Source: a virus (Duplodnaviria > Heunggongvirae > Uroviricota > Caudoviricetes). From it: a stretch of DNA of 13,089 bases. Numbering within the stretch: position 1 is the first letter of the stretch; each line of letters opens with the position of its first letter. The notes beneath the pieces are model-generated. The model was not told the origin of the DNA, did no database searches, and saw nothing but the letters and a program-made list of their open reading frames with translations. Below, in pieces: positions 1,604 through 7,308 of this stretch. The translations under genes were made by a program, and so were the position numbers. The DNA lies in IMG/VR virus record IMGVR_UViG_2531839006_000011, positions 1-13,089 of that record. The stretch is one strand, 5' to 3'.

Positions 1604-2482
1604 ATGAAAATACTTCCCGTTGTCTCAACAAAAGGTGGCGAAGGTAAATCAACACAATCCGCTAACCTGGCTGGTTTTCTCGCCGATGCAGGTATCCGTA
1701 CCCTGCTGATTGACGGAGATCATGCTCAGCCCACGGCAAGCAACATCTTTCCGCTGACATATGAAGCGTCAGCCGGTCTTTTTGAGTTGCTGATGCGCAC
1801 GGCTGACCTCAGTTATCCCGATAACATCATTTCCCGCACAGCTATCGACGGACTCGATCTGATAGTCTCCAATGACCCTCATGAGCAGTTAAAAACTGCG
1901 ATGCTTCACGCCCCGGATGGTCGTCTGCGCCTCCGGAATGTCCTGCAGCATCCGCTTTTTCTGAACAACTACGATGTCATTATAGTTGATTCTCAGGGTG
2001 CGCGTTCTGTCATGCTCGAAATGATTGTGCTGTCGGCCACTGATTCGGTTGTCGGGATGGTCAATCCGGTACTCCCTGATGTGCGCGAGTTTATTCGCGG
2101 CACTGTCAACGTTATGGAGAACCTGCTGCCTTACCGGGAACTGGGGATACCCCTGCCGAAAGTACGCACGCTGGTTAACTGCATGGATTATACGGCACTG
2201 GCCAGGAAGACGCTGGATGAGCTGGCCGGAATTATTCAGACCGGTCGTTACAGCAGGCAGTTACCTGAAGGTGCGGTTTCCCTTCTTTCCACACAGATTT
2301 ACGACCTGAATATTTACAAGCAGGGGCATGCGGCTGGTCAACCCGTACATCGTCTCGAAAAAGAATCCACACGTCGCAGTGATTCCGCGCTTGTCACGAT
2401 GCACAGCCTGGCCTGTGAACTATTTCCTGAGTGGAAACAGGCGTTTGACGGGCTACTGGCTAACGGGGGAATACGTCAGTGA
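1604..2482 (+). CDS. parA: ParA/Soj-family partition ATPase (292 aa)
   Basis: Deviant Walker A KGGEGKST near the N-terminus (VSTKGGEGKSTQSANLA); ATG at 1604 and TGA at 2480-2482; first gene after the att core. Confidence 0.88.
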   Translation: MKILPVVSTKGGEGKSTQSANLAGFLADAGIRTLLIDGDHAQPTASNIFPLTYEASAGLFELLMRTADLSYPDNIISRTAIDGLDLIVSNDPHEQLKTAMLHAPDGRLRLRNVLQHPLFLNNYDVIIVDSQGARSVMLEMIVLSATDSVVGMVNPVLPDVREFIRGTVNVMENLLPYRELGIPLPKVRTLVNCMDYTALARKTLDELAGIIQTGRYSRQLPEGAVSLLSTQIYDLNIYKQGHAAGQPVHRLEKESTRRSDSALVTMHSLACELFPEWKQAFDGLLANGGIRQ

Positions 2483-2570
2483 TTCAGGTTAAGCGAGAAC
2501 CATGCAGCTCCGTTACCCTGGCTTATGGACGTTATCAATACCGGACAATATGACGTGAAGGATTAACCCT

Positions 2571-3065
2571 ATGAATAACAGCAGCAATACCACAACCCGT
2601 AATACGCTTTCACCCGTTGAGTCAGCCTGTCATGCCTTACTGGATTTTATTGCCCGGGAAGTTTTTGAGAATAAAGCACCGGAAGAGGACGTCAGGGAAC
2701 GTTGCAAAGTATTTACAGCGCTGCTTAACGAAGGATTTAAAGCCCTGCTTGATGAGGCAGGGCTGAATCTGTCAAACCTTCGTAAACAGTGTGAGGAACT
2801 GGAATCTCAGATAACCAGACTTGATTCTCAGTCCGATGCTATTTGTCGCAGAGGTGCTCAAATTGAACGCTTCATTGGTCACCATTTACCTTTTTTCGAT
2901 TTGAACAAAGTTTTTGATACTGCCAGTCAGTCATGTGAACCAGCGCCTTCTCCGGCTCAGTCGGCTGTGTCCAGTAGTCAGCCCAGTAATCTGTCAGAGC
3001 AAGGGACATCTCAGCGGGTGTCATCTGTTCAACCGTTGCAGGGAGCCAGTGATGTTGATGAATAA
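2571..3065 (+). CDS. Hypothetical protein (164 aa), coiled-coil-like N-terminal part with Ser/Pro/Gln-rich tail
   Basis: ATG at 2571 with AAGGA about 9 nt upstream; the N-terminal 100 aa look protein-like. The C-terminal 60 aa are low-complexity and overlap a minus-strand ORF with better codon usage, so the 3' extent is uncertain. Confidence 0.5.
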   Translation: MNNSSNTTTRNTLSPVESACHALLDFIAREVFENKAPEEDVRERCKVFTALLNEGFKALLDEAGLNLSNLRKQCEELESQITRLDSQSDAICRRGAQIERFIGHHLPFFDLNKVFDTASQSCEPAPSPAQSAVSSSQPSNLSEQGTSQRVSSVQPLQGASDVDE

Positions 3066-4945: not shown

Positions 4946-6584
4946 ACGAAATCATTCCGTTGATCTGGGGGCTGCCATCATGCAACCGGGCCGTCAGGCC
5001 AGCACGGCAGGTAACGTGGTGGCGCTGGGGGAAACACCGATGATTCTGACGCTGGATCAACTGCGCCCCAACCCGGATAACCCGAGGACCACGCGTAATC
5101 CACGGTACGACGATATTAAAAGTTCAATTTTCTCCCGTGGACTGGATACGGTGCCCAAAGTCACCCGGATACCTGAGAGTGAGCCGGATATCTATATTTT
5201 CAGCGATGGCGGTAACACGCGATATCAGATCCTGAAAGAGCTGTGGGAAGAGACCGGTGATCAGCGTTTCTACCGTATTCATGTGCTTTTCAAGCCATGG
5301 CCGGGACGGCTTCAGTGCGTCATTGGTCACCTGGCGGAGAATGAAGTCAGGGGCGAACTGACGTTTATTGAAAAGGCCCGGGGTATCCATAAAGCACGGA
5401 TGATTTATGAAGAGCAGTTAAGCAAAAGTGTGTCCATGCGAGAGTTGTCATCCCTTTTGACTGAGCAGGGATTACCGGTGGATGCATCCAGTATCAGCCG
5501 TATGGAGAACACCCTGAAATACCTGTATCCGTGGATCCCCGAACTTCTGGAATCAGGAATGGGGAGTCCTCAGGTCAGGGCTTTACTGTCTCTCCGGCAG
5601 GATGCGGAACGTATCTGGGGACAGTTTGCGGTGGCAACAGAGAACGGGGGGGATTTTGACCGCGTGTTTGGTGAATGCTGCAGCAAATTCAATTCACCGG
5701 AGCTCTGGTCACTGGAGATGTTCCGGGATGAGCTGATTGGTGATCTGCTGAAAGCGTTACCACATCCGGTGCTGGATTATGACCGCTGGCTGCTTGAACT
5801 GGATCCGCGGGAACGTAACCGACGTCATCATTTTGGTGAACCTGAACCGGTGCTCATTCCCGCAGACAGTGATGCGATGCCAGAGCCTGTGACTCACGGT
5901 ACGTCGGCAGTGACGGTGGAGAAGGACAGCGGAAGGGAGCAGTCTGTGATTTCCGCACCGGCTGACCATGACACAGTCATGAATACGGAGCAATCCCCTG
6001 TTGGAAAGGCGGAGAGTTCAGTTACTGAACAACGCGAAGAACGCCGCAGAAAGGAAGTCCAGCCGGATATGTATGGTGGTGAAGAAACATACAGCGGCGA
6101 TTACGAAGAGGATGGCGATACCCGTGATGCTGCGGATCTGCCGGTAACGTCACCGGAAGAGGGTGCTCAGCAGAGCAGCGGTGAAATTTTCAGTGAGCCG
6201 GAATTCAGTGTTGGTGAACTGGATGATATCGAATATCTGCAGAATGAGGCATTTCACCTGGCATGGGAGCTGGCGTCACACACAGGCTGTGTCGATGAAC
6301 TGGCTATGGACAGGGAAAGCGAACTGTCTGCGGGATTCGGCGCGGCAGAGGCGAATTGTTCTCCGGTCATGGCATTTCTTGTCAGGCTGACCGGTGAGGA
6401 GGTTCTGCGGGTTAATCCGGTTTCTCTTGATGCACTGATGATTGGTGGCAGTACTGAAGAAGAGCCACCACTGCTGGATGATGAGCATGCCGGGAAGTTA
6501 CTCCGTCTGCTTGGGGTGTTGCGTCGTCTGCGGGGGCTGCAGCGCCAGGTGGAAGAAGAGAACGTGGAGGGGCGTGATGAATAA
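4935..6584 (+). CDS. ParB-like nuclease-domain protein with acidic C-terminal region (about 549 aa)
   Basis: ParB/Srx-type N-terminal motifs (LTLDQLRPNPDNPR, FSDGGNTRYQILKEL) and a long acidic C-terminal half. Start placed at ATG 4935 with GGAGG 8 nt upstream, overlapping the helicase stop by 11 nt; in-frame alternatives exist at 4893 and 4929. Confidence 0.8.
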   Translation: MSIKRNHSVDLGAAIMQPGRQASTAGNVVALGETPMILTLDQLRPNPDNPRTTRNPRYDDIKSSIFSRGLDTVPKVTRIPESEPDIYIFSDGGNTRYQILKELWEETGDQRFYRIHVLFKPWPGRLQCVIGHLAENEVRGELTFIEKARGIHKARMIYEEQLSKSVSMRELSSLLTEQGLPVDASSISRMENTLKYLYPWIPELLESGMGSPQVRALLSLRQDAERIWGQFAVATENGGDFDRVFGECCSKFNSPELWSLEMFRDELIGDLLKALPHPVLDYDRWLLELDPRERNRRHHFGEPEPVLIPADSDAMPEPVTHGTSAVTVEKDSGREQSVISAPADHDTVMNTEQSPVGKAESSVTEQREERRRKEVQPDMYGGEETYSGDYEEDGDTRDAADLPVTSPEEGAQQSSGEIFSEPEFSVGELDDIEYLQNEAFHLAWELASHTGCVDELAMDRESELSAGFGAAEANCSPVMAFLVRLTGEEVLRVNPVSLDALMIGGSTEEEPPLLDDEHAGKLLRLLGVLRRLRGLQRQVEEENVEGRDE

Positions 6585-7308
6585 TGATGCAGCACGTCAG
6601 GAGCAACTGATTAAACGGATAAGAAAACTGCTGGCGCTGAGCCGGAATAACAGTAATCCCCATGAGGCAGGTCAGGCTCTTTCCCGCGCACAGGCGCTGA
6701 TGCGGAAGCATGGTATCACCGAACTGGATGCTGATATTTCGGTGATAAAAACCTCATCATCAAAGGGAGCACCGTCAGAAGCGGAAAAAGTTCCGGTATG
6801 GATGGGGCGTCTTATGAATGTTGTTGCAGGGGCATTCGGATGCCATACATACCTGGATTGGCGTATCACAACCGGAGGATACTGGCGGCGGATTGTCACA
6901 TTTTATGGTTTTGGGGAGCGTCCGGTTGTGGCTGCGTATGCCTTTGATGTTCTCTGCCGGCAGATGCAAAAGGCGACAAAAGAGTATCTCTCAACCCAGA
7001 GCCGGAAATTAAAACACTCAACCCGTCGTGCAAGAGCTGCGATGTTTCGTGACGGCTGGGTTTATGGGGTGCGTGATGTGGTGGATGCATTCCGGCTCAC
7101 GGAAGATGAGACGCGTGTAATGAATACGTGGCTGCAGAACCAGCAATTTGAGGGAATGGTCGTCTTCCGGGAGGTAAAGGACTGCCATGGCGGTGACCAT
7201 GCACGCTGGCAGGGATACAACGAGGGGAAAAAGGCAACGCTGAATCACGGTGTTGGTTCCCGGGATCTGAGACCGGAAAGCCTGATATCAGGCGGAGGTG
7301 AGGTATGA
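6577..7308 (+). CDS. Hypothetical protein, DUF2786-like N-terminus (243 aa)
   Basis: ATG at 6577 with GGAGGGG just upstream, 8-bp overlap with the ParB-like stop. N-terminal EQLIKRIRKLLALSRNNSNPHEAGQALSRAQALMRKHGI resembles the DUF2786 N-terminal helix pattern (recollection). Confidence 0.7.
   Translation: MNNDAARQEQLIKRIRKLLALSRNNSNPHEAGQALSRAQALMRKHGITELDADISVIKTSSSKGAPSEAEKVPVWMGRLMNVVAGAFGCHTYLDWRITTGGYWRRIVTFYGFGERPVVAAYAFDVLCRQMQKATKEYLSTQSRKLKHSTRRARAAMFRDGWVYGVRDVVDAFRLTEDETRVMNTWLQNQQFEGMVVFREVKDCHGGDHARWQGYNEGKKATLNHGVGSRDLRPESLISGGGEV

Follow-up and report, generated by a model that had tools for sequence, protein, structure and literature searches.

Replication, partition and regulation genes in IMG/VR record IMGVR_UViG_2531839006_000011 and their assignment to an ICEEc2-like integrative and conjugative element

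Genes of the replication, partition and regulation module

The stretch of DNA analysed here (the window, 13,089 nucleotides; positions 1 to 13,089 of IMG/VR virus record IMGVR_UViG_2531839006_000011) contains at 1604-7308 a run of genes on the plus strand that a first-pass annotation had likened to the core of integrative and conjugative elements (ICEs) belonging to the SPI-7/PAPI-1 family. The first of these genes (1604-2482, +), which is also the first gene of the ICE, encodes an ICE-type, Soj-like ParA ATPase that matches the Pfam AAA_31, CbiA and ParA models and includes the Walker-type motif STKGGEGKST. The gene at 3557-4945 (+) encodes an SPI-7-type island replicative DNA helicase, DnaB-PI. 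The DnaB-family assignment made earlier is upheld by NCBIfam NF040583 (dnaB_SPI-7_type; 684.7 bits, cut-off 655) and by the Pfam DnaB and DnaB_C models (1e-89 for DnaB_C). Next, at 4935-6584 (+), lies the gene for an ICE-type ParB-like protein of 549 aa, scored at 379 bits by NCBIfam TIGR03764 (ICE_PFGI_1_parB; cut-off 143.75); the large size and acidic tail attributed to it are both found, the latter as an acidic C-terminus in an alignment of homologues. The run ends with a gene at 6577-7308 (+) for a protein with the Pfam domains DUF2786 and DUF7168, as had been anticipated, and this gene is an optional member of the backbone. The gene order and coordinates given by the first-pass annotation are correct, except that a single small hypothetical gene had been placed between parA and the helicase gene, where two open reading frames (ORFs) are present, at 2571-3065 and 3052-3564.

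The conserved module runs past 7308. A DUF2857 gene begins at 7305 (7305-7882 in its intact frame, +; Pfam DUF2857, 2.3e-42), although in the window the match covers only profile positions 2-116 of 174, and it is followed by a gene for an orphan ParE-like toxin-domain protein at 7879-8127 (+; Pfam PF24732, 1.7e-19). The last gene, at 11824-13089 (+), encodes an STY4528-family island replication protein (NCBIfam NF040582, 391.9 bits, cut-off 130). The backbone in the window consists of 1604-7308, 7305-8127 and 11824-13089, and encodes ParA, DnaB-PI, the ICE-type ParB, the optional DUF2786 protein, the DUF2857 protein, the ParE-like protein and the STY4528 protein, the gene for the latter containing oriV-type repeats. 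The ICE carries its conserved module for replication, partition and regulation at one end, and the genes first flagged at 1604-7308 are this module.

When the window proteins were scanned with NCBIfam, the SPI-7-class family models passed their cut-offs for DnaB-PI, the ICE-type ParB and the STY4528 protein. A tblastn search of plasmids with the ParB-like protein led to pKLC102 (NC_019202), and pairwise comparison matched six window proteins directly with pKLC102 counterparts at 26-47% identity. ParA (43% identity, E=1e-70), DnaB (47%, 6e-141) and the N-terminal domain of the ParB-like protein (43%, 2e-75), the three proteins that had been put forward for comparison with known ICE cores, all have a match there; the C-terminal domains of the two ParB-like proteins are collinear and only weakly similar (E=0.003). 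The identities of the remaining three proteins were 32% over the full length for the intact form of the DUF2857 protein (5e-24), 30% for the STY4528 protein (E=1e-48) and 26% for the DUF2786 protein (5e-22), the pKLC102 copy of which is encoded upstream of dnaB.

For a wider comparison, one genome per species was scanned with the alignment of ParB homologues, which yielded 80 loci from other species, nearly all of them Enterobacterales. Gene presence at each locus was scored by tblastn with the window proteins, and genes missing from the counts mostly reflect short contigs. The order was strictly collinear, namely ParA - DnaB - ParB - (DUF2786) - DUF2857 - (ParE-like) - STY4528 - PFL_4669 - topoisomerase III - STY4534 - SSB - PilL. 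ParA stood first in 71 loci, DnaB was present in 77, the DUF2857 gene in 73 and the STY4528 gene in 71. A DUF2786 gene occupied the same position as in the window in 32 loci, and the ParE-like gene was found between the DUF2857 and STY4528 genes in 65, and is thus a backbone gene of the enterobacterial branch. The two small ORFs occupy a variable slot between parA and dnaB. The first (2571-3065, +; 164 aa) is a lineage-specific hypothetical gene, also annotated as hypothetical in the RefSeq copies, whose product had no match in Pfam or NCBIfam and was matched in none of the 80 loci; the product of the second (3052-3564, +; 170 aa) likewise had no family match in these scans and was matched in three loci. 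In Escherichia coli, the core (1511-8127) was found in 107 of 5426 complete genomes, always in the chromosome. The collinear order of parA, dnaB and an ICE-type parB at the end of an element, the family models above their cut-offs and the matches with pKLC102 bear out the proposal of an SPI-7/PAPI-1-family ICE core.

A palindrome scan of the STY4528 gene located oriV-type repeats at 12497-12705, including one perfect copy of TTCGGAAACCGAA at 12644 and two copies with one mismatch each at 12501 and 12600. Half-sites CCGAACTCAGTG occur at 12542 and 12563, followed by an AT-rich stretch with two TACGTACGTA palindromes. The first-pass annotation had described a Rep-like gene with iterons; a replication gene with repeats is indeed present, but the repeats lie inside the gene and not upstream of it, where no iterons were found, and a search of the window for tandem repeats returned only short repeats at the level of chance. 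Inside the STY4528-family genes of 62 of the 71 loci that have one, the palindrome TTCGGNNNCCGAA was found in 156 copies, as against none in 1.3 Mb of flanking sequence. The copies are spaced by 33, 42, 44, 45, 54, 89 or 99 nt, near multiples of 11 nt, and in 25 loci they occupy two or more reading frames; the STY4528 gene of pKLC102 has four. Directly after position 13089, the near-identical copies of the element (L001 31091-31557; L003 30641-31287) carry a tandem array of 13 or 18 copies of a 36-bp unit, each with the palindrome GTTGGCAGTGCCAAC, which is annotated as a gene for a hypothetical protein of variable length. An array of 15 copies of a 57-bp unit is found at the same place in pKLC102, and the 36-bp array, instead of being a gene, probably makes up the second half of oriV. 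A two-part putative oriV that includes the palindrome CTGAGTTCGGAATCCGAACTCAGT was described for PFGI-1 (PMC2647930), and an oriV has been reported for ICEHin1056, pKLC102, SPI-7 and PAPI (PMC2258188). Given that the STY4528 palindromes and the adjoining array match the putative oriV of PFGI-1, this arrangement is a known feature of the family.

Attachment site, transfer genes and extent of the element

A tRNA attachment (att) site had been proposed to lie beside parA. The att repeat is present at 1461-1510 (-), where the ICE starts, but it comprises only the 3' 50 nt of tRNA-Phe, from the anticodon stem to CCA (GGGGATTGAAAATCCCCGTGTCCTTGGTTCGATTCCGAGTCCGGGCACCA on the minus strand), as judged by comparison with the full tRNA-Phe in the near-identical copy L002. 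No tRNA gene was found in the window by ARAGORN or by a search with all Rfam families. The 78-nt tRNA-Ser annotated by RefSeq (PGAP) at 1461-1538 (-) in near-identical genomes is therefore a miscall of the tRNA-Phe remnant. The sequence at the repeat is the displaced 3' half of the native pheV, followed by the native terminator (1426-1451, from a terminator scan), and matches in genomes without the neighbouring island begin at 1453/1461. The full tRNA-Phe at the integrase end (L002 48580-48655, -) is a hybrid, in which 46 of 50 nt are as in the window remnant, and the four differing positions form two compensated T-stem pairs (CUUGG/CCGAG to GGUGG/CCGCC, relative to the displaced native half). 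Between the remnant and the full far-end tRNA-Phe, a core of 22 nt (1489-1510) is identical. An ICE that arrives with its own version of the tRNA 3' end would be expected to leave such a hybrid.

The integrase gene at 1-1263 (-) was considered as that of the ICE and rejected, because both the att repeat and the native pheV terminator separate it from the ICE, because genomes with the ICE alone at pheV do not have it, and because the ICE has an integrase of its own at the far end. The gene encodes a P4-type integrase and heads a separate pheV island, which in strain 181.1 stands in tandem with the ICE and includes genes for sucrose utilisation, an H-NS-like protein, a phosphoethanolamine transferase and restriction-modification (L001 1-18000). 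In strain TUM1887, the same ICE is present at pheV without the tandem island, and adjoins yghD.

The ORF and hidden Markov model scans of the 13-kb window revealed no conjugation genes, as the first-pass annotation had stated. From this, and from the small phage-type ORFs next to the module, a reduced and non-conjugative element had been proposed, a satellite, phage-plasmid-like element or mosaic in which a maintenance module is joined to phage accessory genes and transfer depends on a helper. The genomes that carry the same sequence do not agree with this. Among the matches listed, 11 complete E. coli genomes include the whole window (100% coverage, 99.3-99.8% identity), and a sequence search found the part from 1453/1461 onward to be 100% identical to other complete E. 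coli genomes. In a base-by-base alignment, 1461-13089 differed from L001 and L003 by one base, and the element of the window is effectively the same ICE as that found in more than 20 complete genomes. Beyond the window, strains 181.1, TUM1887 and CH4804 carry the tandem-repeat "gene" and the genes for PFL_4669, topoisomerase III, STY4534, SSB and PilL, then the TIGR037xx ICE type IV secretion genes (MPF_G) and those for TraD, the conjugative ATPase and TraG, and then cargo such as iha and ArdA, together with a type IVb pilus and its shufflon. The far end consists of UvrD, the TraI relaxase, a tyrosine recombinase and the full tRNA-Phe, which adjoins yqgA.

In near-identical genomes, the element measures about 78-100 kb (~78 kb in strain 181.1). 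The DUF2857 segment of the window is present in 31 complete genomes, 29 of which also contain the whole UvrD-TraI-integrase end at a distance of 60-90 kb; one, GPEC1366, appears to lack the UvrD-TraI segment, as a reduced element might. A complete conjugation module immediately downstream, which the first-pass annotation itself had taken as the mark of an ordinary ICE, is found in genomes one base apart from the window, together with the TraI gene, the integrase gene and tRNA-Phe. The apparent core without transfer genes is explained by where the window ends. The annotation of the ~78-kb element includes the full conjugation machinery and no genes for phage structure, packaging or hijacking, and a reduced derivative is therefore highly improbable. 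A prophage was also considered and rejected, as structural genes are absent and the phage-type ORFs are of accessory type only.

The phage-type ORFs form a block of ~3.4 kb (8134-11563, +), identified by Pfam and PHROG matches. As the first-pass annotation had recognised, Ea22-like genes are among them (Pfam Ead_Ea22 at 8307-8519 and 8724-9323), and nearly all ORFs of the block have PHROG matches. Patches of the block share 95-97% nucleotide identity with Stx-converting, lambdoid, P1 and P7 phages, which could be cited for a phage-derived element and which points to recent exchange with phages of E. coli. The eleven ORFs of the block had no match in any of the 80 loci, and the distance from the DUF2857 gene to the STY4528 gene is 3941 bp in the window compared with 3-1210 bp elsewhere. 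ICE variants at pheU in E. coli strains G6/7 and NC101 have different Ea22-like sets at the same junction. The block is exchangeable cargo at a hotspot between the ParE-like and STY4528 genes and not a replacement of transfer genes, and it fills one junction of an otherwise intact collinear backbone. Phage-type genes are not unusual for the family, since the pKLC102 module also carries Lar, HNH and Rha. Within the block, a 145-nt direct repeat (9837-9981 and 10668-10812; 93% identical) encodes the N-terminal 48 residues that two paralogous phage-type ORFs (132 and 137 aa) have in common, and several ORFs are marked as pseudogene fragments in RefSeq.

The window is thus assigned, with a probability of about 0.93, to the ParA-proximal end of a complete ICE of the SPI-7/pKLC102/PAPI-1/ICEclc family and the ICEEc2-like lineage of E. 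coli, integrated at the 3' end of a tRNA-Phe gene. A direct repeat accompanies the insertion at the tRNA 3' end, and the tyrosine recombinase gene lies at the other end of the element. The STY4528-family protein with oriV-type palindromes adjoins an array seen past the window end in near-identical genomes, and these genomes likewise supply the MPF_G type IV secretion system, the coupling protein and the TraI (MOBH-type) relaxase, all outside the window. The element, its family and the module are already described in the literature and named in RefSeq annotation, and the finding is correct but ordinary. Its value is one of correction: the core without transfer genes is an effect of the window end, the neighbouring integrase belongs to a different island, and the "tRNA" is an att remnant.

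The far-end genes for UvrD, TraI and the integrase were found to be transcribed toward att in a near-identical copy (L002 44214-48383). Because they point toward att, circularisation would place the parA operon directly downstream on the same strand, and expression of the operon may in this way be coupled to excision. A promoter scan of 1511-1603, from the att core to parA, returned no sigma-70-like promoter, which is weak negative evidence only.

The ParB-like and DUF2857 proteins as a candidate BisD/BisC pair

In the alignment of homologues, the ParB-like protein is divided into a conserved N-terminal domain (residues 1-305), a variable acidic and proline-rich linker (~305-428), a conserved and possibly helical C-terminal domain and the acidic C-terminus. 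The motifs GNTR at 93-96 (G93-N-T-R96) and ENEVR at 135-139 (E135-N-E-V-R139) were invariant in two alignments of ParB homologues, and profile searches against PDB gave marginal matches to KorB (E=0.044) and ParB (E=0.89). The ParB character of the protein is indicated by the ICE-specific NCBIfam model, the GxxR and ENxxR motifs and these weak profile matches.

The BisD protein of ICEclc is a ParB-like protein of 550 aa that binds CTP, loads at bisS and spreads over ~50 kb, and activates the transfer-competence promoters together with the DUF2857 protein BisC (PMC12409273, PMC7423338). Its motifs are G92NTR95 and E136NELR140, and its extra C-terminal domain is required for promoter activation (PMC12409273), while BisD and BisC are both required for activation of ICEclc (PMC7423338). 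In the window, a ParB-like N-terminal domain with the GxxR and ENxxR motifs is likewise present, and a DUF2857 partner is encoded downstream, after the intervening DUF2786 gene. Given the architecture, the positions of the motifs, the DUF2857 domain and the adjacency of the two genes, the ParB-like and DUF2857 proteins are probably the enterobacterial counterpart of BisD and BisC.

A classical ParABS system plus replicon would also account for some of these genes. ParA and ParB would then segregate the excised form without any regulatory role, and the DUF2857 protein would be unrelated. The Walker-type motif of ParA and the family oriV nearby agree with such a role, and pKLC102, with homologous ParA and ParB, is a plasmid record typed as conjugative, MPF_G and MOBH. 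However, a canonical ParB is half the size of the ParB-like protein, whose long linker and additional conserved C-terminal domain recall the description of BisD (PMC12409273), and a DUF2857 gene accompanies the ParB-like gene in the 73 loci mentioned above. In addition, growth arrest by ParA and Shi of ICEclc does not depend on ParB (PMC6812849). A Pfam ParB domain was not detected at E=10 in nine family members, and no parS was identified. A partition system alone is accordingly an unlikely account of the module, although partition and regulatory roles are not mutually exclusive.

No obvious counterpart of bisS was found in the E. coli ICE by a scan limited to perfect palindromes, in which the bisS sequence itself, published for ICEclc as GAGCTATCCCCnGGGGATAGCTC, was not looked for. 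Seven perfect palindromes with arms of at least 9 nt were found, each at a single position, and the one repeated palindrome with 8-nt arms is part of the 36-bp array.

Alignment with near-identical copies revealed that the DUF2857 gene of the window is frameshifted by the loss of one G from a GGGG run at ~7669-7672. The frame is altered after about residue 123 and the ORF ends at 7778, giving a product of 157 aa compared with 192 aa, and the part removed is the C-terminal part conserved with pKLC102. The extra G is present in all 31 complete genomes carrying the DUF2857 segment. The missing G could reflect an error in sequencing, or else a genuine mutation that inactivates the presumed activator subunit. 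In the latter case, the window copy would be a defective, chromosomally locked ICE in which a 1-bp deletion abolishes activation of transfer competence. Removal of a conserved part of the protein is in keeping with this, as are the occurrence of the deletion in none of the 31 genomes and the need of ICEclc for both BisD and BisC (PMC7423338). However, a single-base difference in a homopolymer of an otherwise identical sequence resembles an error of sequencing or assembly, and the equivalence with BisC is drawn by analogy, so that a locked copy is regarded as doubtful.

In the mechanism suggested by the relatives, DnaB-PI, the STY4528 protein, SSB and topoisomerase III would serve to replicate the excised circular form, starting at the oriV region, and ParA would help to maintain this form. 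The ParB-like and DUF2857 proteins would act like BisD and BisC, with a CTP-dependent sliding clamp loading on the ICE and, together with its partner, switching on the transfer genes. In ICEHin1056, disruption of parB, orf4 and topB reduced transfer by up to 100,000-fold (PMC3739013). The combined proposal that the enterobacterial pair would be a BisD/BisC-type CTP-clamp activator of transfer and that, if the deletion is real, the window copy would be a chromosome-locked, natural loss-of-function allele is given a low probability.

Several points weigh against the interpretation of the element and its regulators offered here. The window ends at 13089, and the conjugation genes were read in near-identical genomes and not in the source genome. 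Owing to the DUF2857 frameshift, the window copy may not be transfer-proficient. The Pfam model of the ParB N-terminal domain (PF02195) had no match even at E=10 in any of the nine family members. The AlphaFold2 model of the ParB-like protein, built on a nine-sequence alignment, is poor (pLDDT 52); at this low confidence it places helices at 431-450, 477-484, 498-503 and 516-544, and leaves 301-430 without secondary structure. Equivalence with BisD and BisC is inferred from architecture, motif positions, the DUF2857 domain and adjacency, and the ParB-like and DUF2857 genes are separated by a DUF2786 gene in 32 of the 80 loci, as they are in the window.

The ParE-like gene stands without an adjacent antitoxin, in a branch without the HicA-like Shi of ICEclc, and is absent at this position in pKLC102. 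In ICEclc, ParA and Shi lead to growth arrest, and shi is absent from SPI-7 and ICEHin1056 (PMC6812849). Neither a shi-like gene nor alpA is evident in the window. More speculatively, the conserved orphan ParE-like protein could be a growth-arrest partner that replaces Shi.

Comparison with known systems

The closest known systems are ICEEc2, from E. coli BEN374, and the ICEEc2-like ICEs that occupy phe-tRNA genes in E. coli from birds and humans, which share with the window element the E. coli host, integration at pheV or pheU, the pKLC102/PAGI-2 family backbone, the type IV pilus, the relaxase and the integrase. Across the entire window, ICE 2 of strain CH4804 shows 99.5% identity, and it encodes the same STY4528 RefSeq protein (WP_001696196.1). 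The ICEEc2-like copies differ in cargo, such as iha in L002 and an added Tn7 in CH4804, and the DUF2857 frameshift is confined to the window copy in comparison with the 31 genomes. The iha gene was found in both L002 (5887-7974) and CH4804, and the Tn7-type transposon of CH4804 (TnsA, TnsB, TnsC; L088 45349-49901) agrees with the aadA1/sat2/dfrA1 genes listed for its ICE 2.

Excision and conjugative self-transfer of ICEEc2 are cited in PMC11537424 and PMC6761156. ICEs of this lineage, including those of clinical donors such as ICE 2 of CH4804, are reported to transfer and to mobilise chromosomal DNA, and the chromosomal transfer that they drive creates hybrid E. coli clones (PMC13127887). The lineage is medically relevant, since its members carry iha and some strains also have resistance genes of Tn7. 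For work on how transfer of these ICEs is switched on, the BisD/BisC-like pair and the oriV region offer concrete targets.

The Pseudomonas elements pKLC102, PAPI-1 and PFGI-1 have homologous ParA, DnaB, ParB, DUF2786, DUF2857 and STY4528 proteins. Like the window element, pKLC102 has TTCGGNNNCCGAA palindromes in the STY4528 gene followed by a long tandem array, with PFL_4669 and SSB genes downstream, and is of the MPF_G and MOBH types. It differs upstream of parB, where yejK, Arc and small ORFs stand between that gene and the DUF2786 and dnaB genes. It also lacks a ParE-like gene, has Lar, HNH and Rha as accessory ORFs, and its published integration site is tRNA-Lys (PMC6761156).

ICEclc of Pseudomonas knackmussii B13, with the operon alpA-parA-shi-bisD-bisC-orf96323, was compared by its published description. 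The two ParB-like proteins are of nearly equal length (550 aa in ICEclc, 549 aa in the window), and the motifs at 92-95 and 136-140 correspond to those at 93-96 and 135-139 in the window. The variable linker and the conserved, possibly helical C-terminal block of the window protein may correspond to the long linker and helical C-terminal domain of BisD, and both elements encode a DUF2857 partner downstream and have a later gene with the TTCGGATTCCGAA palindrome. In contrast to ICEclc, the window has neither alpA nor shi, dnaB lies between parA and parB, a DUF2786 gene lies between parB and the DUF2857 gene, and a ParE-like gene follows the latter. As a separate observation, the TTCGGNNNCCGAA palindrome matches the first half of the PFGI-1 putative oriV and also the 'bisS-3' candidate in orf96323 of ICEclc, which did not recruit BisD.

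SPI-7 of Salmonella Typhi is represented by the NCBIfam models dnaB_SPI-7_type, STY4528 and STY4534, which are named after SPI-7 genes and all of which are matched here. SPI-7 and ICEHin1056 have the order parA-dnaB-parB without shi (PMC6812849), as does the window, and their cargo differs from that of the window; the likeness of these two elements to the window was drawn from the models and from published descriptions.

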